Of a stretch of 64,000 bases of DNA, positions 14,122 through 30,370 are shown piece after piece (the first letter of the stretch is position 1; every line of letters begins with the position of its first letter). The stretch spans positions 2,577 through 66,576 of the forward strand of contig DAOTYC010000060.1 of the NCBI GenBank assembly GCA_034435095.1. The letters run 5' to 3'. The DNA is from Anaerolineae bacterium. GTDB taxonomy: Bacteria > Chloroflexota > Anaerolineae > DAOTYC01. The notes under the pieces were generated by a model that worked only from the letters and a program-made list of their open reading frames with translations, did not search any database and was not told where the DNA came from. Both the position numbers and the translations under genes were made by a program.

Positions 14122-14850
14122 ATGATGAAAATCATGGTAGTGATACCTACCTATAATGAGGCGACCAATCTCCCAGCCATCGTCGGCGAGCTGTGGTCAT
14201 TAGGATTGGATTCGCTCGAAGTGCTTGTCGTGGACGATGATTCACCTGATGGCACTGGACAGATCGCCGATGAGCTGGCTGAGCAATATCCGGAACGTTT
14301 CCACGTGATCCACCGACAGGGCAAGTTGGGCCTGGGGACCGCCTATCTGACGGGCTTTCGCTACGCGCTTGAGCATGGCGCTGACTACATAATTCAGATG
14401 GATGCCGATTTCTCCCATTCGCCCAGTTACATCCCGGCTATGTTGGAGAAATGCCAGGAATATGACGTTGTGGTCGGCTCGCGATACGTGCCCGGGGGGC
14501 AGTTGGACGAGAAGTGGAGCTTTTGGCGGCACTTCTTGAGCTGGTGGGCCAACAGCATCTACGCACGCTTGATTCTGAACCTGAAGGTGCGCGATGCCAC
14601 CGCCGGGTTCAAGTGTTGGCGGAGAGGTGTGTTGGAGGCCATTGATTTCGATCAAATCACATCCAACGGCTATGTCTTCCAGGTGGAAATGGCCTACGTA
14701 ACAGAAAAACTTGGCTTCCGCGTCTACGAGTTGCCCATCTACTTCGAGGACCGGCGGATTGGGCGGTCTAAGATGACGATTCCCGTAAAATTTGAAGCGG
14801 CCTGGCGCGTATGGGAGATACGTTGGAGGCACAGGAATCTCAAGCCTTGA
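14122..14850 (+). CDS. GT2 polyprenol-monophosphate sugar synthase (Ppm1/Dpm1-like)
   Basis: [26 protein letters not shown] and [13 protein letters not shown] ~14122 follows a GGAGGAG RBS. Confidence 0.85.
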
Positions 14851-17800
14851 GAATCCGTAAGCTGTGGCCCGACCTGACCGCCATCGTTATGCTCTTTCTG
14901 TTGCCTTTGGCCCTTTTCTGGGCGGTCACCATCGGCCCGCGTACTCTCTTGCCTTTCGACAATCTGTTCACCATCGAACCGTGGCGTTCCTTTGCGGCAC
15001 AACTGGGCGTCAGCGTCCCTCACAATGAATTGCTGAGTGACCTCATCCTGGAAAACTACGTATGGAAGCAGTTCATCCGCGAGTCGCTGGCGAACCGCCA
15101 AATCCCCTTGTGGAACCCATATCTGTTCAGCGGTTTGCCATTCCTGGCTGCCGGACAGCATTCCGCACTCTATCCTCTGAGCGTTCTCTTCTACATCCTG
15201 CCACTGGCTAAAGCCTACGGCTGGTTCAGCGCCATACAGCTTTTCCTGGCTGGGCTGGCGATGTATGTCTTGGGGCGCGTGCTCGGCCTGAGCCGATTCG
15301 GCTCTCTACTGGCCGGGATTACCTACATGCTGAGCGCGTTCTTCGTGATCAGTGTGGTCTTTCCCATGGTTATCGCCGCGGCAGCGTGGTTGCCGCTGCT
15401 TCTGGCCGTTATCGAAATCGTCATCCGTAAACAAGAACAGAAAGGCCCCATCCGCTACTCCCCCATACCGTACATCATCGCCGGCGCGGTAGTCCTCGGC
15501 GTGCAGGTGCTGGCCGGTCACGTCGAGATCACCTATTACGTCTTGATGGTCTGCGGCTTCTATGGAATTTGGCGGCTGGTCGCCTTGTGGCGCAGCCAGC
15601 GCGCCCTGGGCCCGACAGTGCGGTTGGGCGGCTGGCTGCTCATTATGGTGGCCCTGGGCATGGGGCTCGGCGGAGTGCAATTCATCCCCCTCTTTGAGGT
15701 TGCCCAACACAATTTCCGCTTAGGCTCGGTGGGCTATCACGAGGTCATCGGCTGGGCCTTCCCCTGGCGACAGGCTGTAACTTTTTTGATCCCAGACTTT
15801 TACGGCAACCCAAGCCATCACGCCTACTGGGACATTGTGTCCTGGCGCTGGCAACCCGTGCTGCGTAATGCCTTGGGCCAGGCTGTTCACACCATCGCCT
15901 GGCTCAAGGAGCTGCCAACGTGGAAGAATTACGTCGAGGCTGCCAGCTACGTGGGCGTCTTGCCCCTGTTGCTGGGATTGGTGGCGCTCTTGGGGCGACG
16001 GACGCGCCATATCTGGCTGTTTGCCTGTCTGGCCATCGTTGCGCTCTTGTTTGCTTTCGGTACGCCGCTGTACGCCCTGTTGTTCTATCTGTTGCCCGGC
16101 TTCAATCAGTTGCATTCGCCGTTTCGTTGGGTGTACCCTTATACTTTGAGCGTGGCCGTGTTGGCCGGCTTCGGCGCCTCGTATCTGTCAAGGAGCGGGG
16201 TTTCGGATTCCGGAATCCGAAACCCCTCACAACGCATAGGCTGGCCGGCTTTCTGGGCCGGCGTGGCTGGCCTGTGTCTGTTGCTCATCGTACTGGCCTT
16301 CCCTGGCCCATTCATCGCCCTGGCGGACGCGGTCCTGGCCCATTCGGAACTGACGCAGCGCGCCTTTGAGAGCGGCCGCATGTTGCTGTCCTACCAGTGG
16401 CGCAATGCCCTCGTATTTGTCGTGTTCTTGATTTCGGCGGGCGCGGTGATACGCATTAGCCGCTGTCCCATCTATCTGCCGCGCCGTTTAGGTGGCTACG
16501 CCGTATGGAAGCCGCTCGCCGTCGTCATCCTGGCGCTGGATCTGATGGTTGCCTCGGCGGGCTTCAACCCGGCAACCGACCCCAAGTTGATGGAGTTCAA
16601 GCCGCCGGTCGCCGGGTTTTTGCAGCAAGATCCTGGCCTTTGGCGACTGACCGCCTTTGTCGCGCCCGGCGAAAAGACACTGATCGCCAATACCGGCATG
16701 TATTATGGCTTTCAAGACATCCGCGGCTACGATTCCATCTTCCCGCGCCAATACGCCGATTTTATGGGCACGATTGAAGAGCAGGATGAACTTCTTTTCA
16801 ACCGAATTGCTCCGCTGTCAGAATATGACTCTCTCGATTCACCGATGTTAGACCTGGCCAATGTCAAGTATGTCGTCACGACGCAGCATATACCGAACGC
16901 GGGCTATGAGCTGGTCTACGACAACGAGGTGCGCGTCTATCGAAACGAGGACGTGATGCCCAGAGCCTTTGCCCTGCCGGCCCGCGCCGCACAAGTACGG
17001 CCCGCAGGGGAAATCTTAAAGCTGCTGCCGGCGACCGACCCACGTCAGACGCTGGTGCTGGAGGCTGAACAGGTCGCGTCCAGCCCGCCGCCGTGGGGCG
17101 GTCCCGCGCCGGACGCGACCTGGCCGCTCACGCCGGCTACGGTGGCCGAGTACGGCGCGAACGAAGTCGTCATCCGCGTGGATATACCATCGGAGGGGTA
17201 TCTGGTTCTGGCCGACTCGTTCTTCCCCGGCTGGAAGGCATATCGGCGCGCGCCAGAGGCCAGCGCAAAAGAAGAAGATGAGCTCCCTCTCTATCGCGCC
17301 TACGGCAACTTCCGCGCCACGCCGCTGCCTGCTGGCGAACACATCGTCCGGTTCAAATACAGTCCGTTGTCGGTCAAGCTGGGGGCGTATGTCAGCTTCA
17401 TGTCGGCGATAATTCTGTTCCTGCTGGGTTGCGCCTGGGTGTGGGGGCGTTACTACCGCGAGAGTGAGGACGATTCGCCGGTCAAGCGCATCGCCAAGAA
17501 CAGCCTGACGCCGATGTCGCTTTCGTTGCTCAACAAAGTGATTGACATGGCGTTCGCCATGTTGATGTTGCGTATCCTGGCGCCGGAAAACGCTGGCCGC
17601 TATCAGTTTGCCGTGGCGTTCTTCACCTTCTTTGAGATTCTGGTGCGTTTCGGGTTCGGTACATTGCTCACCCGCGAAGCAGCCAAAGACCGTTCGCAGG
17701 CCAACCGCTACCTCAGCAACACCATTGTTCTCCGCTCGGGCCTGTGGCTGCTGTCGCTGCCGGTCATGGCCGGAGTGGTGTTCCTCTACATGCGCTACGG

Positions 17801-18950
17801 CGGCGTGACGGCAGACACCGCCACAGCCATCGGTTTGCTCGCCATCGCGCTTTGGTTCAGCGTCGTCGCCGACGCGCTGACCGCCGTGTTCTACGCTTAC
17901 GAGAAGATGGAGCATCCGGCCTCGCTGAGCACCATGACCACCGTCCTGCGTGTGCTGTTGGGCGCGCTGGTCATCCTGCCGCCGCTGAACTGGGGCTTTG
18001 TTGGACTGGCGGGGGTGGCTATCGTGACCAACGTTTTCAGCGTGATCGTCCTGTATTCGCTGCTGGCGCGCCTGTTCTTCCGCCCGCGCCTGGAATTCGA
18101 CCGCGCCCTGGGGCGTCAGATGTTCGCTGTCTCCTTCCCACTGATGATCAACCACCTGTTGCAGACCATCTTCTTCCGCATAGATGTGTGGATTTTGCAG
18201 CCAATGCACGGCGCGACGGTAGTGGGCTACTACGGCGCAGCCTACAAATATATAGACGGCCTGAACGTGGTCCCGTCTCTGTTCACCATGGCAATCTTCC
18301 CGTTGATGTCGCGCTTCGCCAGCGAATCACGGGCTTCGCTGTTGCGTGCCTATGTGCTCGCTCTGCGCCTGCTGTTCATGATCAGCATACCGGTTGCGGT
18401 GGTTACGCCGTTCATCGCCCGCGAGCTTATCCTTATCTTAGGCGGCGGCGAGTATCTGCCCGATTCGATGATCGCGCTGCAACTGCTCATCTTCTTCTTC
18501 CCGTTCAGTTGCATCAACCAGGTAACGCAATACGTGCTCATTGCCATTGATCAGCAGCGTTACCTGACCAGGGCGTTCCTGATCGGCGTGACGTTCAACG
18601 TGGTGATGAACCTCATCTTCATCCCGGCGTATAGCTACAAGGCGGCGGCGGTCATCACCATCTTCTCGGAGGTCGCGCTGATGATTCCCTTCTATTACTG
18701 CGTCAGGAAGAACCTGGGGGCGGTGCCGTGGTTCAGCCTGGTCTGGCGGCCGGCCCTGGCGTCGGGGGCAGCCGGGGCGATGCTGTGGCTGCTGCGCGAC
18801 GTCACACCGCTGTTGACTGTGCCGCTGGCCGCCGCAATCTATCTGGCGGGCATGGCGTTGCTGGGCGCCTTCCGTGAGCAGGACATGAACATCATCCTCG
18901 CGCAGTTACCGCTCGGACGGGTGAAGGCGAAGATTGCCGGACTGCGGTAG
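14811..18950 (+). CDS. fusion protein: N-terminal YfhO-family GT-C glycosyltransferase (~850 aa) and C-terminal Wzx/PST-family (MOP superfamily) flippase (~480 aa)
   Basis: Single 1379-aa ORF. The N-terminal region has the YfhO signature [21 protein letters not shown] and many TM helices. From ~aa 900 it reads [64 protein letters not shown], the canonical N-terminus of polysaccharide-biosynthesis (Wzx/RfbX/SpoVB) flippases, followed by ~12 TM helices. Confidence 0.7.
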
Positions 18951-21297: not shown

Positions 21298-21414
21298 CAG
21301 GGAACTCCCAGCCGAGTACAATAGCTGACAAACGGAGCCCGCTCGCCGGATTTGCCGCTTAAGGGCGCGCAGCGGGTGGAATCGTCACGAAATGGGATGG
21401 TGATACACAAGGTA

Positions 21415-22164
21415 ATGAGAACAGCAGCAAAGACCTGGATTGTCTTAGCCATAGCCTTTTTCCTGTTAAGCTCTTCCCTCGGATGCGCCATCGTGAAGGT
21501 TGTGCGCAAGGGGACAAGCGAGCCAGCGCAGGTGCAACAGCCAAAGATGGCCGAGGTTCAACCGACGTTCACGCCCGTCCCGACGCATACGCCGGTGCCT
21601 ACCTTCACGCCGACGCCGACGCTTACGGCGACACAGACGCCAACGAATACGCCGTCCCCGACAGCCACACCGCTGCCTCCAACCGATACGCCTGTACCGA
21701 CCAACACACCAGTCCCGCCCACCAAGCCTCCGCCGCCGACCGATACGCCTGTGCCGCCAACGGATACGCCCGTCCCATTTATCACTGCGCACGGGGTCGT
21801 CGGTACCTTAACTTTGATTGACCCACAGCCAAGTTATCGCAACCGAAGCGCGGTGAAGCTCCGCTGGTCGGCAAAGAACGAGACCGGTGCGCCAATCGAG
21901 TTCGGCATTCTCGGCATCACCATGAACACGGGTACGGGACCCAACCAGTTCCAGAGTACCCGTTCGGGGCCAAACAACAAACTGGAGCCTGGTGAGGAGA
22001 TTGGCGCGGAAGAAATCGTCAGGCCGCTCCGCTTTGGAGAGCAGGTTGAGGGCGACGTCCTCATCGTCTTGTCAATGTGTTTTAACAAATATGACGAATG
22101 TGAAAAACCAGGCGCGGATTGGGAGAATATCTCTCCACCTGTTGTGATTCATATTGTGCCGTAA
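21415..22164 (+). CDS. secreted/anchored protein with a Pro/Thr-rich linker and small C-terminal domain
   Basis: Signal-like MRTAAKTWIVLAIAFFLLSSSLGC, a ~80-aa PT linker (PTFTPVPTHTPVPTFTPTPT...) and a ~120-aa globular C-terminus. The start could instead be 21397 or 21352. Confidence 0.5.
   Translation: MRTAAKTWIVLAIAFFLLSSSLGCAIVKVVRKGTSEPAQVQQPKMAEVQPTFTPVPTHTPVPTFTPTPTLTATQTPTNTPSPTATPLPPTDTPVPTNTPVPPTKPPPPTDTPVPPTDTPVPFITAHGVVGTLTLIDPQPSYRNRSAVKLRWSAKNETGAPIEFGILGITMNTGTGPNQFQSTRSGPNNKLEPGEEIGAEEIVRPLRFGEQVEGDVLIVLSMCFNKYDECEKPGADWENISPPVVIHIVP
21565..21785 (+). repeat. imperfect tandem DNA repeats encoding the PT linker
   Basis: Reiterated units such as ccgaccgatacgcctgtgccg, ccaaccgatacgcctgtaccg and ccaacggatacgcccgtccc. 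These are coding low-complexity repeats, not CRISPR. Confidence 0.5.
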
Positions 22165-24000: not shown

Positions 24001-25089
24001 ATGATGAAAACCTACCGTATCCCGATGGTGCCGGGGCCGACCTCAGCGCCTGAGCCAGTTCTGGCTGCATACACCGTCAACTACGGTTCCGGTGACCTGG
24101 AGCCGGAGTACTACGAACTGTACGAAGAGACCCAAAGCCGCCTGCAAAGGATCATGGGAACCTCCAACTCGATAGTCATCATGAGCGGAGAGGCCATGGT
24201 CACATTATGGGGAGCGTTGAAAAGCTGCCTCAAGCCCGGCGACCGGGTTCTTTGTATCGGAACGGGCGTGTTCGGCTACGGCATCGGCCAGATGGCACGG
24301 TCGGTGACCAGCGATGTCCACTTCGTGGACTTCAGTTACGACGAAATCTGTCGCCCGGAACGGGCCGAAGACGCCATCATGAGCTTACGCCCCAAGATGG
24401 TCACGATGGTGCATTGCGAGACGCCATCGGGCACGCTGAACCCGGTCGCTGAAATCGGCCAGCTCATTCGGTTGCACGGCGTGCCCCTGTTCTACGTGGA
24501 TGCCGTCTCCAGCGCGGGCGGGGTACCTCTGCTCACGAATGAATGGGCCATTGACTTGTGTCTGGTGGGCACGCAGAAGTGTCTGTCCGCCCTGCCCGAC
24601 CTGGGCATATTGTCCGTTAGCGAAAGGGCCTGGCAAGTAATCAAAGAAGTGCGCTATGAAGGTTATGACGCGCTGGGGCCATGGCGGACTGCTTTGAGCG
24701 ACCGCTGGCTTCCTTACACCCCTTCCTGGCAGGCTATGGCAGCCCTGCACACCGCTTGCGGTCTCTTGCTCGATGAAGGCCTCGACCGGGTATTCCAACG
24801 GCACGCGGACGCGGCTCAATTGTGCCGTCGGCGGGCGAAAGAAATGGGGCTGGAACTCTTCCCACGTCGAGAGGAGTATTGCTCTCCCACCGTGACCGCG
24901 CTTAAAGTTCCGGAACGGATCGGCTGGGCCGAACTGGACCGACGCCTGCGTAGCGCCGGCATGGTGGTAGGCGGCTCTCTTGAAAAACTGGCTGGGAAGG
25001 TCTTTCGGATTGGGCACATGGGCACCCAGGCCAACCTGCAACTGGTCGAACAGGCGATGGATGTCTTGGAGCAAATGCTCAGACTTTGA
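24001..25089 (+). CDS. class V PLP-dependent aminotransferase (serine-pyruvate/alanine-glyoxylate type)
   Basis: AAT_I/class V fold, GTQKCLSALPDLGILSV, RBS AAGGAGGAGC-ATGATG. Confidence 0.8.
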   Translation: MMKTYRIPMVPGPTSAPEPVLAAYTVNYGSGDLEPEYYELYEETQSRLQRIMGTSNSIVIMSGEAMVTLWGALKSCLKPGDRVLCIGTGVFGYGIGQMARSVTSDVHFVDFSYDEICRPERAEDAIMSLRPKMVTMVHCETPSGTLNPVAEIGQLIRLHGVPLFYVDAVSSAGGVPLLTNEWAIDLCLVGTQKCLSALPDLGILSVSERAWQVIKEVRYEGYDALGPWRTALSDRWLPYTPSWQAMAALHTACGLLLDEGLDRVFQRHADAAQLCRRRAKEMGLELFPRREEYCSPTVTALKVPERIGWAELDRRLRSAGMVVGGSLEKLAGKVFRIGHMGTQANLQLVEQAMDVLEQMLRL

Positions 25090-25114
25090 GGAATGAGGCA
25101 GTCTGTGTTATAAT
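25086..25114 (+). promoter_or_regulatory. sigma70-like promoter for the rubredoxin-encapsulin operon
   Basis: TTGAGG-17 nt-TATAAT preceded by TGT (extended -10 TGtTATAAT). Confidence 0.5.
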
Positions 25115-25166: not shown

Positions 25167-25325
25167 ATGGATAAGTGGCAATGTACGGCGTGTGGTTACA
25201 TCTATGACCCGGCAGTCGGCGACCCTGACGGGGGCATCCCGGCCGGAACAGCTTTCGAGGACCTGCCGGACGATTGGGTGTGCCCAGAATGTGGAGTGGG
25301 CAAGGACATGTTTGAGAAGCTGTAG
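25167..25325 (+). CDS. rubredoxin
   Basis: 52 aa, [52 protein letters not shown], with both CxxCG and CPxCG iron-binding knuckles and an AGGGAGG RBS. It is below the ORF-track length cutoff. Confidence 0.85.
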
Positions 25326-25433
25326 GAGCTTAATATTGGGAATAAGTTAATCGAAATCATCGTTTAACTTGGGATAGGGGCCAGGAGTAGTTCTTCCAGT
25401 CTCTATCCCCTCCTCCAAGTGAAGGGGTCAAAG

Positions 25434-26621
25434 ATGCGCCTGGTCATTGTCGGCAATGGCGTGGCGGCCGTTAATGCGGCGTTAACAGCCTTGAAGGTTC
25501 GGCCCAATGCCGAGATTACAGTCTTCTCCGAAGAGCCGTATTACTATTACCCCCGCCCGCGTCTATGGGAGTTTCTGCCGGGCAAGCTGTCGCTAGAGCA
25601 GCTTTACTTCTATCCGCCAAGCTGGTACGAAGAACGTGGCATCATGGTGCAATTGGGAACGCCCGTAGCGCAAATAAAGCCGACTGACAGAGCGGTGATC
25701 CTTAAGAATGGGCAGGGAGCCTCTTATGACCGTCTATTGCTCGCCAATGGGGGGCTTTCCTTTATCCCGCCCATAGAAAACGTACGGCAACGAGGCGTTT
25801 TCGCGCTTCGCAATGTGGAAGATGCCCTGGCCATCCGCGCTTACGCAGAGCGAGCACGTTCGGCAGTGGTCATTGGTGGGGGCTTGCTGGGACTTGAATC
25901 GGCCCGTGGTCTGAAGGACCTGGGGCTTCAGGTGACCGTTGTCGAAATGGCGCCGTGGCTGCTGCCGCGTCAACTCGACGAACCAGGCGCCGCCATCCTG
26001 CGAGAAATCTTCGAGGGTATTGGCATTAAGACGATTACCGGCGCGATCACCCAGGCGATTGAGGGAGAAACCCAGGCGACCGGCATTCTTCTGAAGGATG
26101 GCCGTCGCATCCCCGGCGAGCTTGTTTTGATTTCGGCCGGAGTCCGCAGCAACACCGCGCTGGCCGCGGCGGCGGGATTGCAGGTAAATCGTGGCGTCGT
26201 CGTAGATGAACACATGCAAACCAGCGCGCCGGACATCTACGCCGCTGGGGATGTAATCGAATTTCAGCAACGCAGCTACGGCATCATTCCGGCGGCCATC
26301 GAGCAGGCGCGTGTCGCTGGCGCCAGTTTGTGCGGCGAGTCTGAGCCCACTTATCAGGGCACCGTCCCTTCCAACACCCTGAAAGTGGTGGGGATCAGCC
26401 TGACCACGGTGGGTACGACGGACGCCCCCAATGGCAACTATCGCGAATATCGTATTTCTGACTCATCTCGCGGCCTGTATAAGAAACTGGTGGTGAACAA
26501 CAATAAGCTGGTCGGCGCGATTCTATTGGGTTTTCCCAAAGAGACAGCCCAAATCACCAGAATGGTGCGCGAGCAAGAGCCGCTGGACCGGCCGGTGGAA
26601 GAGTTGCTGCAATTGAATTAG
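25434..26621 (+). CDS. FAD-dependent pyridine-nucleotide-disulfide oxidoreductase, NAD(P)H:rubredoxin oxidoreductase-like
   Basis: MRLVIVGNGVAAVNAA (FAD Rossmann), a second GG motif VVIGGGLLGLE, and ~400 aa. Adjacency to rubredoxin supports the call. ATG ~25434. Confidence 0.7.
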   Translation: MRLVIVGNGVAAVNAALTALKVRPNAEITVFSEEPYYYYPRPRLWEFLPGKLSLEQLYFYPPSWYEERGIMVQLGTPVAQIKPTDRAVILKNGQGASYDRLLLANGGLSFIPPIENVRQRGVFALRNVEDALAIRAYAERARSAVVIGGGLLGLESARGLKDLGLQVTVVEMAPWLLPRQLDEPGAAILREIFEGIGIKTITGAITQAIEGETQATGILLKDGRRIPGELVLISAGVRSNTALAAAAGLQVNRGVVVDEHMQTSAPDIYAAGDVIEFQQRSYGIIPAAIEQARVAGASLCGESEPTYQGTVPSNTLKVVGISLTTVGTTDAPNGNYREYRISDSSRGLYKKLVVNNNKLVGAILLGFPKETAQITRMVREQEPLDRPVEELLQLN

Positions 26622-26650: not shown

Positions 26651-27184
26651 GTGAAGAAGATGAGTTTGCAAGGCAAGAGAATTGCCATTCTGGCAGAGGA
26701 AATTTATGAAGATATGGAGCTGTGGTACCCCTATTACCGTCTGAAGGAAGCCGGCGCAGAGGTGGTAATCGTGGGCACCGGTTCAGCGAACCAATATCCC
26801 AGCAAGCACGGCATACCGGTCAAAGTTGATGTCGAAGCCGGCAAGATTTCAGCCGATGAGATAGACGGGGTCATCGTGCCCGGCGGGTTCGCGCCTGATA
26901 GAATGCGCCGCTACCCCGCCGTGTTGGAGTTGGTCAAGACCGCTTTCGACCGCGGCAAACTGGTTGCAGCCATCTGTCACGCCGGCTGGGTGTTGGTGTC
27001 TGCGAAGGTGTTGAATGGCCGTAGAGCTACTTGTGTGTCGGCCATCAAAGACGACGTGATCAACGCTGGGGCAACTTATGTAGATGAGCCGGTCGTGGTG
27101 GACGGCAATTTGATTACTTCACGGACGCCGGCAGATTTGCCGGTGTGGTTGCCCGCGATCATTTCATTCCTGGAGGGCAAATAG
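26651..27184 (+). CDS. DJ-1/PfpI-family protein
   Basis: GKRIAILAEE...AAICHAGWVLVSAKVL, with the nucleophile elbow Cys in AICHAG. Confidence 0.8.
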   Translation: MKKMSLQGKRIAILAEEIYEDMELWYPYYRLKEAGAEVVIVGTGSANQYPSKHGIPVKVDVEAGKISADEIDGVIVPGGFAPDRMRRYPAVLELVKTAFDRGKLVAAICHAGWVLVSAKVLNGRRATCVSAIKDDVINAGATYVDEPVVVDGNLITSRTPADLPVWLPAIISFLEGK

Positions 27185-27236
27185 GCAATGGCAAGCCTGG
27201 ATTTGCCCCATAGTTTGTGCTCGAAAGGAGGCAGAT

Positions 27237-28187
27237 ATGGCCGAACTGACCAAACAGCAAATTATCGCCATGCTTAACGAAGACTTGAAAGGCGAACACA
27301 TGGCCATCATTCAGTATCTTCGCCATGCTTACGCGATAGGCGAAGGAGAGGTGGCCTGTGAGATCGAAGCCATTTCGCGGGAAGAAATGTACCACTTTCA
27401 CTGGCTGTCCGAACTGATTGTAGAATTGGGGGGCAAGCCGACCCTCGAACGCGCCAAACTGGACCTTGGCGGGAACGAACCGGCCGACTGGTTGTTTAGA
27501 GACATCCGCGCTGAGCAAGAAGCCATCGCTCTGTACAAGAAACACATCAGCCTGATTGATGACCCTAAGGTCGTGCGCGTCCTGAAACGGATCCTGTCTG
27601 ATGAACAGGCACACGAACAAGACTTTACCAAGCTGATGGAAGAGGTCAAAGCAGAGATGCCGTCGCCCGATGTGCCGGCGACAGAACCTGCGCCAGCTCC
27701 AGATGCGCGATTGGTGGAGATACTGAATCAGGGTGTGCGACACGAGTACACGGTTATCCTCCAGTACCTCTATCATTCACATACGACCCCCCATCGTGGC
27801 ATCGGCGAAGAGCTGCACTGGCAAGCCGTCAATGAGATGCAGCACATGGGCTGGCTCTCTGAGGCTGTCATAGAGCTGGGTGCAGAGGCTGACATGGAGC
27901 ACACCGAAGTCGACCTCTCGGCAGATACAGCCGCGATGTTGAAAGCTGACATTGCTGCCGAACGAGCAGTGACCATGGACTATGACGCCCAGATCAAAGA
28001 GGTGCAGGATGAGGAGATCAGAGAACTGCTGAGCCGCATCCGTGACCATGAAATCTATCACGATGAGTTGTTCACAGAAATGCTGGAAGAATTGCAGAAA
28101 GAAAACCCGCCCTCTGAACAAGACAAACCGGAGTCGGCGACAGGAGATGCTGAAATTCCGACAGTTGGCAGCCTGATCGGCAGGTAA
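27237..28187 (+). CDS. tandem (duplicated) bacterioferritin-like diiron protein with a C-terminal encapsulin targeting peptide (putative encapsulin cargo)
   Basis: Two consecutive complete four-helix-bundle ferritin-like domains. Each has helix A E...QY..H (LNEDLKGEHMAIIQYLRHAY / LNQGVRHEYTVILQYLYHSH), helix B ExxH (EEMYHFHWLSELIVELGG / NEMQHMGWLSEAVIELG), helix C E, and helix D ExxH (DEQAHEQD / DHEIYHDE). The C-terminus ...GDAEIPTVGSLIGR resembles Family-1 encapsulin cargo-loading peptides (hydrophobic-GSL-hydrophobic-G). Confidence 0.7.
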   Translation: MAELTKQQIIAMLNEDLKGEHMAIIQYLRHAYAIGEGEVACEIEAISREEMYHFHWLSELIVELGGKPTLERAKLDLGGNEPADWLFRDIRAEQEAIALYKKHISLIDDPKVVRVLKRILSDEQAHEQDFTKLMEEVKAEMPSPDVPATEPAPAPDARLVEILNQGVRHEYTVILQYLYHSHTTPHRGIGEELHWQAVNEMQHMGWLSEAVIELGAEADMEHTEVDLSADTAAMLKADIAAERAVTMDYDAQIKEVQDEEIRELLSRIRDHEIYHDELFTEMLEELQKENPPSEQDKPESATGDAEIPTVGSLIGR

Positions 28188-28243
28188 CACGAACTTTTAG
28201 CCTGGAAGCGCAGAGAGGCTTTGATTAGATTAAGGAGGAAACC

Positions 28244-29053
28244 ATGAACGAATATCTTTTGCGAGAAGATGCCCCTCTTTCTAAGGAAGATTGGGAACGG
28301 ATTGACAACACGGTAGTCGAAGTAGCCAAAAGGTTGTTGGTTGGGCGGCGATTCATTCATCTGTTTGGCCCACTGGGGCATGGCGTCCAGTTCGTCACCG
28401 TAGACCGACTGGATGGCGCAGCAGGTGATGTCGTCGCTGTGGACTTGAGCCAACGACAGGTCGTCCAGTTGGTCACCATTCAAAAGGATTTCAAACTGCT
28501 GTGGCAAGATCTCGCCAACGGTGAACAGACCGGCTTGAAGTTCGATGTGGGGCCGGTGGCTGTCGCGGCTGTCGCGGCCGCCCAGGCCGAAGACGAACTG
28601 ATCTTCAAAGGTGGGAGTGGCATGGAGGGATTGCTGAGCGTCAAGGGCCACACCACTTCCCCATTGGGCAATTGGGACGAGGTCAATGCAGGTATCATGG
28701 CGGTAGCCGGCGCGGTTGGGAAGCTCATGGGCCGCGGCTTTTTGGGGCCATTTGCACTGGTCACCAACCCCGTGACCTACGCCAAGTTGTTGCGTCCCGT
28801 GCATGGTCAGGGCGCTCAGCTCGAAATCAAACTGGTGGAACAAATCGCGACGGCTGGCATTTTCCAGACACCAGCGTTGAAAGAAAATGAAGCGGTTGTG
28901 GTCTCCACCGGGCCGGAAAACCTCGACCTGGCGGTGGGACAGGACCTGGTCACAGCCTATCTGGGGCCGGACGGCCTGGACCACATCTTCCGCCTGGTAG
29001 AGACGGTCGCCCTGCGCATCAAGCGACCAGGGGCAATTTGCGTCCTGAAATAG
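28244..29053 (+). CDS. Family 1 encapsulin shell protein (HK97-fold, linocin M18-like)
   Basis: MNEYLLREDAPLSKEDWERIDNTVVEVAKRLLVGRRF and the C-terminal DLAVGQDLVTAYLGPDGLDHIFRLVETVALRIKRPGAICVLK align motif-for-motif with T. maritima/M. xanthus encapsulins (L.R..APL....W..ID ... LILGQDLSIGYED...ETFTF). AAGGAGG RBS. Confidence 0.85.
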   Translation: MNEYLLREDAPLSKEDWERIDNTVVEVAKRLLVGRRFIHLFGPLGHGVQFVTVDRLDGAAGDVVAVDLSQRQVVQLVTIQKDFKLLWQDLANGEQTGLKFDVGPVAVAAVAAAQAEDELIFKGGSGMEGLLSVKGHTTSPLGNWDEVNAGIMAVAGAVGKLMGRGFLGPFALVTNPVTYAKLLRPVHGQGAQLEIKLVEQIATAGIFQTPALKENEAVVVSTGPENLDLAVGQDLVTAYLGPDGLDHIFRLVETVALRIKRPGAICVLK

Positions 29054-29083
29054 AGACCAGTCCGTCTGGAATGAACGAGTGAA

Positions 29084-29128
29084 GGAGAGCGAAGATGACC
29101 ATAATTCATCTTCGCTCCTTTTGTTTTT
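29084..29128 (+). terminator. rho-independent terminator ending the encapsulin operon
   Basis: GAGCGAAGATGA-ccataat-TCATCTTCGCTC is a 12-bp perfect stem, followed by CTTTTGTTTTT. Confidence 0.65.
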
Positions 29129-29265
29129 GATAGGCCGGTCAAATTCTAACAAATCTCTAGTGGAATTATCCCTCGATATGGTGTATAATAGAGTTGAACA
29201 AAGGGGAGCCGTTGGGTGGCCCTTACGGTCATGAATCGTGAATGAACTTGAAAGGCTGAAGCAAG

Positions 29266-29928
29266 ATGTCGCACGGGATGTGGGAACTGCCCGACCTTTC
29301 GGAGAACTTATCTCGGCAGAGTGAATCGTTTGGAGAGGACCTCCGTCAGGTCTCCTACGCTGCGGGCGAGACAATCTACACGCCAAAGGCTGGCAGTGAA
29401 GCCGTGTATTTGTTGATCGAAGGCGAAGTACAGCTCTATCGGCTGGGCTCAGACGGCCGACGGTTCACGGTGGCGGTCCTGAAACCGGGTGCAGTATTCG
29501 GTCAGGCCAGCTTGTTGGGCAGCCTGGAGTCGGAAACGTATGCTGAAGCGACCGCGCCGTCCGCTGTGTGGTGTATTGCCGGACGCAGTGCTCAGGAGGT
29601 GTTTTCGCGCAGTCCCAGCCTCAGATTTGGCCTGCTCACCGGGCTGAGCCGACGCCTGGCCGATGCTGAGGAGCGTCTGGAGTGGATGGCCTACAAAAAG
29701 GTCTCGGCCCGGCTGGCCGGGCTGCTGCTGCAAATGATGGATGCAGAACGAAAAACGGTCACAGGCATCACCCATCAGAAGATGGCAGATATGCTGGGCG
29801 CGTACCGTGAGACTGTCAGCCAGGCGTTCAGAGAGCTTCGCGTTAAAGGCCTGGTCAGCCCTGGTCGCAAGAACATCAAGATACTGAACCCGGAGGGGCT
29901 CAGAAAAATGGCTGAGAATATGAATTAG
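29266..29928 (+). CDS. Crp/Fnr-family transcriptional regulator
   Basis: N-terminal cNMP-binding beta-roll and C-terminal HTH (MADMLGAYRETVSQAFRELRVKGLV). No N-terminal Cys cluster is seen, so it is probably not an Fe-S FNR. Confidence 0.85.
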   Translation: MSHGMWELPDLSENLSRQSESFGEDLRQVSYAAGETIYTPKAGSEAVYLLIEGEVQLYRLGSDGRRFTVAVLKPGAVFGQASLLGSLESETYAEATAPSAVWCIAGRSAQEVFSRSPSLRFGLLTGLSRRLADAEERLEWMAYKKVSARLAGLLLQMMDAERKTVTGITHQKMADMLGAYRETVSQAFRELRVKGLVSPGRKNIKILNPEGLRKMAENMN

Positions 29929-29941
29929 GAGGTAACTTGTA

Positions 29942-30370
29942 ATGTACAGCAAAATCGTCGTGACTCTCGACGGGTCTGCTCATGCCGAATGTGCACTCTC
30001 ACATGCCGAAGCATTGGCCAAGAGCCTGGGCGTCGAGCTGGTGCTGCTGCAAGTAGTCCCTTACCCCGAGGTGAGGGATGAAGCTGTTGAGCTCGAATGG
30101 CAGGAAGCCGCCCGCAAGTATATGGACGACATTGCGGCGGGCCTCAAGAGCCTGGGAGTCGAATCCCGTGTCGAAGTCTTATGGGGAGATGTGGCTGAGA
30201 AGATCGTTGAATATGTGGAAGAAGACAAGAATGCTCTGTTGGTGATGTCCACGCATGGCCGGACAGGATTAGCTAAATTGGCATTTGGCAGCGTCACCGA
30301 AAGAGTGTTAAGAGAGGCAAAGACCACTCCAGTGCTTGTGTGTCGTTGCATGGACAGCGGCGCTGCATAG
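29942..30370 (+). CDS. universal stress protein (UspA family)
   Basis: MYSKIVVTLDGSAHAECAL...VMSTHGRTGLAKLAFGSVTERVLREAKTTPVLV. Confidence 0.85.
   Translation: MYSKIVVTLDGSAHAECALSHAEALAKSLGVELVLLQVVPYPEVRDEAVELEWQEAARKYMDDIAAGLKSLGVESRVEVLWGDVAEKIVEYVEEDKNALLVMSTHGRTGLAKLAFGSVTERVLREAKTTPVLVCRCMDSGAA

Follow-up and report, generated by a model that had tools for sequence, protein, structure and literature searches.

The window analyzed here is a 64,000-nucleotide stretch of the contig DAOTYC010000060.1 from an uncultured Anaerolineae-type member of the Chloroflexota, and at 27237..28187 on its plus strand lies an uninterrupted open reading frame (ORF), with an AGGAGG Shine-Dalgarno sequence 5′ of its ATG, whose translation is a protein of 316 aa. 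The gene that starts 56 nt 3′ of it on the same strand (28244..29053, +), with its own AGGAGG ribosome-binding site in the gap, encodes a family 1 encapsulin shell protein of 269 aa (NF041155, E = 1.2e-74, 251.1 bits versus a cutoff of 100; PF04454, E = 2.3e-66). On its 5′ side, again on the plus strand, are genes for a rubredoxin, a rubredoxin reductase, and a DJ-1/PfpI family protein. The 316-aa product is very probably a double ferritin-like protein (DFLP) that serves as the core cargo of the encapsulin, while the mechanistic details proposed below are held with less confidence.

The first-pass annotation of this locus had described the product as a tandem-duplicated bacterioferritin (Bfr)-like protein with two complete E/ExxH/E/ExxH ligand sets, and both descriptions held up. 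The Pfam Ferritin model (PF00210) matches two stretches of the protein (E = 4.7e-20), with overlapping ferritin-superfamily models matching as well, and the N- and C-terminal halves (residues 1-141 and 151-316) are 31% identical when the sequence is aligned with itself (E = 6e-21). Profile searches, which had been suggested as a check for a non-ferritin family, place the protein in the ferritin/Bfr superfamily. Structure prediction, another suggested check, was carried out with AlphaFold2 on an alignment of 38 homologues and returns two four-helix bundles (predicted local distance difference test score, pLDDT, 92.1; predicted template modelling score, pTM, 0.85). The N-terminal four-helix ferritin domain (residues 1-140; 27237..27656, +), recognized by Pfam, alignment, and the model, contains modelled helices at residues 6-34, 38-63, 82-106, and 110-140, and the C-terminal domain (residues 157-289; 27705..28103, +), recognized by alignment and the model, has them at 157-183, 187-213, 231-255, and 259-289; no fifth helix (helix E) is modelled in either domain. 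The Pro/Ala-rich linker between the domains (residues 141-156; 27657..27704, +) is predicted to be disordered, with pLDDT falling to 67 in the block 141-150. Residues 290-316 are likewise predicted to be disordered, and they comprise an acidic, Pro-rich flexible spacer (residues 290-306; 28104..28154, +; pLDDT 55-66), which differs in sequence and length between homologues, followed by a short terminal peptide. The diiron ligands are E20, E50/H53, E93, and E123/H126 in the N-terminal domain and E170, E200/H203, E242, and E272/H275 in the C-terminal domain. All 12 are present and, together with M51 and M201, invariant across the 38 homologues. This conserved methionine pair, which corresponds to the heme ligands of a characterized relative, had been missed by the first-pass annotation, whose account of architecture, ligands, tail, and shell otherwise stands.

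The relative in question is TmDFLP of Thermocrinis minervae (PDB 9VIW), to which residues 5-288 of the window protein align over residues 12-296 of 9viw_A, a 306-residue chain labelled 'bacterioferritin' (phmmer, E = 1.3e-46). TmDFLP and CaDFLP, from Caldanaerovirga acetigignens, are the characterized members of a group for which a 2025 preprint gives structure and activity data, describing them as homodimeric ferroxidases that bind heme and do not assemble into a cage (bioRxiv 10.1101/2025.09.13.676036). On the 9viw alignment, after correction for a tag of 10 residues and with the numbering of the preprint, E17/E47/H50/E92/E122/H125 of TmDFLP correspond to E20/E50/H53/E93/E123/H126 here, E167/S197/H200/E240/E270/H273 correspond to E170/E200/H203/E242/E272/H275, and the heme methionines M48/M198 correspond to M51/M201. 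Because the C-terminal domain has the canonical Glu (E200) at the position of TmDFLP S197, both diiron sites are complete. A complete ligand set is reported for 57% of DFLP C-terminal domains, and the M48/M198 heme methionine pair is said to be 100% conserved in DFLPs (bioRxiv 10.1101/2025.09.13.676036). The TmDFLP equivalent of the linker, residues 140-152, is unresolved in the crystal (bioRxiv 10.1101/2025.09.13.676036). TmDFLP is a homodimer by crystallography, size-exclusion chromatography with multi-angle light scattering (SEC-MALS), and SAXS (small-angle X-ray scattering), forming no cage, with AlphaFold3 giving the same result; TmDFLP and CaDFLP occur as dimers or monomers that bind heme sub-stoichiometrically, and TmDFLP alone, without a partner, consumes Fe(II) and produces Fe(III) (bioRxiv 10.1101/2025.09.13.676036). 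The earlier suggestion that the fused protein may not form the canonical 24-mer agrees with the homodimeric state found experimentally for TmDFLP, and the modelled absence of helix E and the predicted disorder of the linker lend indirect support to a protein that would form no cage. The sole cysteine of the window protein, C41 (27357-27359), lies at the start of helix B, where 33 of the 38 homologues have Cys and TmDFLP has Ser.

The protein ends in ...EIPTVGSLIGR, in which IPTVGSLIGR (residues 307-316; with the stop codon, 28155..28187, +) is the putative encapsulin targeting peptide, recognized by its conservation, its co-occurrence with encapsulin genes, and published motifs. A C-terminal cargo-loading peptide with an adjacent shell gene had been proposed before, and a tail of this type and the shell gene are both found here. 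Compared with [LF]-x-[VI]-G-x-[LI], the peptide has the TVGSL core and the invariant Gly, with Pro at the first hydrophobic anchor (IPTVGSL); the published targeting motif is [LF]-x-[VI]-x-x-[LI], with LTVGSL and FTVGSL forms (bioRxiv 10.1101/2025.09.13.676036). Among the best 120 of 2746 homologues, 68 have xTVGSL near the C-terminus, where the residue preceding TVGSL is P in 17, L in 31, W in 11, F in 8, and Y in 1, and the remaining 52, mostly 280-291 aa long, generally stop just past the last helix. In the window protein's own clade (P0002-P0018, 62-82% identity), the tail takes the form [IV]-P-[TS]-[VI]-G-S-L and is kept while the preceding spacer diverges. The Pro-type tail is a clade-specific variant, and it sits beside encapsulins in two further loci, L003 and L006, as well; its retention within the clade, these neighbours, and the overall pairing of tails with encapsulin genes support a targeting role. 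No ORF of at least 60 aa in the 64-kb window has another C-terminal TVGSL-like motif.

The association between tail and shell was scored across 75 independent related loci, most of them from a scan of GTDB species genomes for DFLP relatives (best match 69% identity; 404 DFLP loci, nearly all in Chloroflexota), and loci whose downstream sequence was too short were left out of the count. Tail and encapsulin are both present at 14 loci and both absent at 60, while one locus has the tail without an encapsulin and none has an encapsulin without the tail (Fisher's exact p = 2.7e-14). At all 14 loci with both, the shell gene directly follows the DFLP gene on its strand. The tail, whose conservation had been put forward as a check on the cargo assignment, is retained where an orthologue neighbours an encapsulin and missing where it does not; tail and encapsulin gene behave as a strict module. 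Chance is excluded by this co-occurrence and by the homology statistics. About one fifth of the scored loci carry the tail; in the preprint's set, 56 of 157 DFLP family members bear C-terminal encapsulin targeting peptides (bioRxiv 10.1101/2025.09.13.676036). One DFLP locus (L038:415-3606) encodes a Pro-type tail, PPTVGSLF, with no encapsulin in the 8 kb downstream or 2.6 kb upstream examined, and 5′ of its DFLP gene are PfpI, rubredoxin, and a 477-codon ORF that apparently fuses rubredoxin to its reductase. By analogy with the proposal made for TmDFLP, this protein could be a secondary cargo.

Among solved shells, the window encapsulin is closest to M. xanthus EncA (E = 1.8e-60) and 6nj8 (E = 1.7e-59), the latter of which we take to be the T=4 shell of Q. 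thermotolerans, and both of these shells house iron-storage cargos. The T=1 shells, which include those of T. maritima (4e-19) and M. tuberculosis, are far off, within an overall range of 1e-14 to 1e-19. The EncA shell is T=3 (bioRxiv 10.1101/2025.09.13.676036). This proximity to EncA and 6nj8, and the distance from the T=1 shells, make it likely from sequence that the encapsulin here forms a large iron-mineralizing shell.

In the mechanism that we propose, the two Bfr-like bundles of one chain would pack together as separate subunits do in a bacterioferritin dimer, with each bundle holding one diiron ferroxidase centre and the M51/M201 pair at the bundle interface able, as its TmDFLP counterpart suggests, to ligate heme. 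By analogy with TmDFLP, from which heme binding and ferroxidase activity are likewise expected, the protein would be a homodimer and not a cage. The IPTVGSLIGR peptide, at the end of a flexible spacer, would attach to the interior surface of the encapsulin. Fe(II) would then enter via the shell pores, one or both diiron centres would oxidize it, and the encapsulin lumen would keep the ferric mineral, as a substitute for the ferritin cage. What the sequences show is the architecture, the ligands, the kinship with TmDFLP, the pairing of tail and encapsulin, and the order of the genes; actual encapsulation, like the dimer, heme binding, ferroxidase activity, and any role for rubredoxin, is inferred.

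Several observations weigh against this picture. Heme occupancy in TmDFLP is just 3-8%, with none seen in the crystal (bioRxiv 10.1101/2025.09.13.676036). R187 (27795-27797) stands here in place of C184, the cysteine through which the TmDFLP dimer is disulfide-linked, at a position where 26 of the 38 homologues have Cys; with this replacement the dimer may be weaker, and CaDFLP, which likewise lacks the cysteine, is mostly monomeric (bioRxiv 10.1101/2025.09.13.676036). Pro at the first hydrophobic anchor departs from the published targeting motif, and binding of this variant to the shell is putative. Finally, the rubredoxin encoded in the window has no targeting peptide, and if it is the redox partner, its route to an encapsulated cargo is a difficulty.

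The genes upstream of the DFLP gene form, with it and the encapsulin gene, what on sequence grounds is apparently one operon. A promoter-like site, TTGAGG-17-TATAAT with a TG (25086..25114, +; 10/12 matches in a consensus scan, weak evidence), precedes the rubredoxin gene and is a possible operon start. The rubredoxin itself (25167..25325, +) has 52 aa (PF00301, E = 2.3e-25), has a gene call in public contigs identical to the window, and holds the same position in L003. The NAD(P)H:rubredoxin oxidoreductase-like flavoprotein (25419..26621, +) matches Pyr_redox_2 (E = 3.4e-56) and Rubredoxin_C, the C-terminal domain of rubredoxin NAD+ reductase (E = 5.6e-17); it is 395 aa long as called in the public contigs and 400 aa as the longest ORF. 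Directly 5′ of the DFLP gene is the gene of the DJ-1/PfpI family protein (26651..27184, +; PF01965, E = 4.1e-52; TIGR01382, 176.7 bits, above cutoff), a position kept in L003 and L006. Thirty-four nt past the encapsulin stop codon, a terminator-like hairpin with a 12 bp stem and a T-tract (29087..29117, +) was found in a pattern scan and is the probable operon end; like the promoter-like site, it is a pattern match only. L003 and L006, whose DFLPs share 69% identity with that of the window, have exactly this order of rubredoxin, reductase, PfpI, DFLP, and encapsulin, as do the public contigs identical to the window. Apparent co-transcription with rubredoxin, rubredoxin reductase, and PfpI points to a response to oxygen or peroxide and iron stress in anaerobic or microaerophilic Anaerolineae-type Chloroflexota. 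In structure searches we also found PDB 3fse (Anabaena), in which a DJ-1/PfpI domain is fused to a ferritin-like domain; this fusion and the conserved PfpI neighbour suggest a recurrent functional pairing.

Beyond the hairpin, Pfam identifies two conserved neighbours, a Crp/Fnr-family regulator (29266..29928, +) and, after it, a universal stress protein (29942..30370, +), whose functional link is putative; both recur 3′ of the encapsulin gene in L003. FNR-type regulators need more than a single Cys for oxygen sensing by a [4Fe-4S] cluster, and the regulator here has only one, which rules it out as such a sensor. Three antisense ORFs, 27159..27776 (205 aa), 27777..28190 (137 aa), and 28058..29386 (442 aa), all on the minus strand, overlie the well-supported plus-strand DFLP and encapsulin genes and were rejected as shadow ORFs; these are common in DNA of 57% G+C. 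Rfam and tRNA scans of the whole 64-kb window gave no matches, and a tandem repeat scan found nothing relevant. Elsewhere in the window, a 270-aa ORF (21352-22164, +) without a Pfam match has a hydrophobic segment at the N-terminal end and an extended Pro/Thr-rich repeat of PTxTPVP units, within which Tandem Repeats Finder (TRF) reports an 18-nt period at 21562-21611; its product is probably secreted or lipid-anchored and has a PT linker. A 1379-aa ORF (14811-18950, +) combines YfhO-like membrane segments with a Polysacc_synt/MurJ-type flippase domain and is an unusual cell-envelope fusion or possibly two genes merged by a mechanical ORF call.

Rubredoxin accompanies DFLP genes well beyond this operon: 44 of 61 related loci have it upstream, on the strand of the DFLP gene. 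In the 43 tail-less loci of at least 10 kb, the same-strand neighbours include rubredoxin (35 loci), flavodiiron protein (27), rubrerythrin (21), and superoxide reductase (15), such that tail-less Chloroflexota DFLPs are embedded in rubredoxin-dependent clusters for the detoxification of O2 and reactive oxygen species (ROS). At one such locus (L004:4369-7263) the genes encode a Fur-family regulator, rubrerythrin, rubredoxin, DUF7130, DFLP, and ferredoxin. Another (L034:2948-9883) runs from a Fur-family regulator through rubredoxin, flavodiiron protein, rubredoxin reductase, and rubrerythrin to PfpI, superoxide reductase, DFLP, FMN reductase, and flavodoxin. In one homologue, P0033 (L086:5001-7036), an N-terminal rubredoxin is fused to a DFLP with an LTVGSL tail, and the gene for a 284-aa encapsulin lies 3 nt downstream. 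This fusion is a Rosetta-stone hint that rubredoxin is a partner of DFLP and can be co-encapsulated with it. A rubredoxin-domain gene has been noted near CaDFLP, and the role of non-encapsulated DFLPs has been called unclear (bioRxiv 10.1101/2025.09.13.676036).

From this context comes a tentative proposal, which we regard as possible but short of probable, that the Chloroflexota DFLP is a client of the electron chain with which anaerobes counter O2 and ROS, running from NAD(P)H through rubredoxin reductase to rubredoxin. The operon would then encode a redox-coupled iron compartment, in which rubredoxin electrons reach the DFLP heme and re-reduce the diiron sites or release iron, as the ferredoxin Bfd does for bacterioferritin, and the encapsulin and tail would be a module added to an older, soluble, rubredoxin-dependent DFLP. 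The gene neighbourhoods suggest for the rubredoxin chain either re-reduction of the metal centres, that is, peroxidase or oxidase turnover, or reductive iron release via heme. The latter would parallel Bfd with Bfr, and a second parallel is Desulfovibrio Bfr with rubredoxin-2, for which a literature search gave no citable source. If true, this proposal would supply a role for the tail-less DFLPs, left unexplained in the 2025 preprint.

A further reading of the rubredoxin connection would make DFLP mainly a rubredoxin-dependent peroxidase or oxidase, rubrerythrin-like with its rubredoxin in trans, and iron storage would be secondary. Turnover of H2O2 or O2 would then rely on the re-reduction of its diiron and heme centres by NAD(P)H, reductase, and rubredoxin. 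We consider this rather unlikely. It would account for the presence of rubredoxin and its reductase in the same apparent operon, for the frequency of rubredoxin upstream of related genes, for the company that tail-less relatives keep with flavodiiron protein, rubrerythrin, superoxide reductase, and Fur-family genes, and for the natural rubredoxin-DFLP-tail fusion next to an encapsulin gene. However, TmDFLP turns Fe(II) into Fe(III) without any partner, the shell is most like the large iron-storing T=3 and T=4 encapsulins, and the window rubredoxin, which carries no targeting peptide, is of a size (about 6 kDa) that should not pass encapsulin pores. The ferroxidase function that we prefer and a peroxidase or oxidase function are not mutually exclusive.

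Another arrangement is a shell within a shell, in which 12 chains, or 24 domains, form a bacterioferritin-like cage that is then packaged in the encapsulin. Each domain does have a Bfr-like fold, a dodecameric double-ferritin cage is known in Asgard archaea (dFTN), and Andreas & Giessen assumed such a cage for 'Bfr' cargos, but the match to the non-cage 9viw (E = 1.3e-46) is set against one of only 3.2e-15, over a single domain, to the mini-Bfr relative of dFTN. The four helices per domain without helix E and the disordered rather than ordered linker point the same way, as does TmDFLP, for which SAXS, MALS, and AlphaFold3 gave no cage, and we hold a packaged cage to be highly improbable. That the tail is a chance resemblance, with DFLP free in the cytosol beside an encapsulin that has other cargo, can be dismissed as scarcely credible: with its Pro before TVGSL the tail does deviate from the motif in the literature, and 60 of the 75 loci have no encapsulin association, but the tail-encapsulin association is near-perfect (14/1/0/60), [IV]P[TS][VI]GSL is kept across orthologues of 62-82% identity while the spacer diverges, and no other ORF of the window has such a tail.

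This cargo class has been reported three times, in 2016/2017, 2021, and 2025, and the window protein therefore adds a member and is not a discovery. The 'Flp+Flp' cargo was noted by Giessen & Silver in 2016/2017 (10.1101/085266), and a two-bundle 'Bfr' cargo type of family 1 encapsulins was listed by Andreas & Giessen in 2021 (PMC8346489), with these cargos attributed to a few Firmicutes, Aquificae, Chloroflexi, and Cyanobacteria (PMC8346489; 10.1101/085266). As one more uncultured Anaerolineae-type example of a catalogued and solved class, the protein matters little as such. What the survey adds is that DFLPs are far commoner in Chloroflexota than published counts suggest, with 404 GTDB species here versus 157 proteins in the InterPro-based set of the preprint. 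Three features keep some interest, namely the Pro-type tail, the completeness of the C-terminal site, and the strong association with rubredoxin and oxygen defence throughout Chloroflexota, of which the last is the only lead here with some novelty. The recurrent context of rubredoxin, its reductase, flavodiiron protein, superoxide reductase, and rubrerythrin, together with the P0033 fusion, provides a testable hypothesis for the redox partner of DFLP and for the exit of iron from an encapsulin store.

Comparison with other ferritin-like families sets the DFLP apart. Rubrerythrin was rejected on a weak, partial Pfam match without a fused rubredoxin domain, and Mn catalase and COQ7 on partial, overlapping superfamily matches only. 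Classical bacterioferritin, a single-domain subunit of about 158 aa that forms a 24-mer (TIGR00754), was rejected at 38.8 bits versus a cutoff of 125.55 for a protein with two domains and no helix E. In comparison with E. coli 1BCF and D. desulfuricans 1NF4, one chain here amounts to two Bfr subunits, no cage is expected, and mineral storage would be left to the encapsulin. The EncFtn/Flp, EncB/EncC, and IMEF proteins resemble it as ferroxidase cargos with LTVGSL- or FTVGSL-type C-terminal peptides in iron-storing family 1 encapsulins. However, EncFtn, a half-ferritin with two helices, assembles into decamers, IMEF is a single four-helix-bundle dimer, and the EncFtn/EncB-type profiles fall below their cutoffs (NCBIfam EncB_fam, 75.8 bits versus 90, and TIGR04535, 45.6 versus 125; Pfam EncFtn-like, 18.1 versus 27). 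The dFTN proteins of Asgard and TACK archaea, described in 2026, also have two ferritin domains per chain through duplication, but they have five helices per domain, an ordered linker, a 12-mer cage, and kinship with mini-Bfr (bioRxiv 10.64898/2026.08.25.747088). The dFTN preprint makes no mention of encapsulins (bioRxiv 10.64898/2026.08.25.747088). With four helices per domain, a disordered linker, and a far better match to 9viw than to the mini-Bfr 9qq4, the window protein is not a dFTN, and dFTN and DFLP are independent duplications.

The 'Bfr' and 'Flp+Flp' papers describe the same kind of cargo, but they assumed a 24-mer cage inside the shell, which the later DFLP work contradicts, and they knew few examples, whereas 404 GTDB species loci encode relatives here. 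With TmDFLP and CaDFLP the window protein shares two four-helix Bfr-like domains, a disordered linker, the EEHEEH site of the N-terminal domain, the Met/Met heme pair, and a flexible spacer followed by a C-terminal tail of the xTVGSL type; like CaDFLP, it has its encapsulin gene directly downstream, as a core cargo. It differs from TmDFLP in the full EEHEEH site of its C-terminal domain (E200 versus S197), in R187 in place of C184, and in the Pro rather than L/F preceding TVGSL. The hosts of TmDFLP and CaDFLP belong to the Aquificae or Firmicutes, in contrast to the uncultured Anaerolineae-type Chloroflexota host here, and the operon here includes rubredoxin, rubredoxin reductase, and PfpI.

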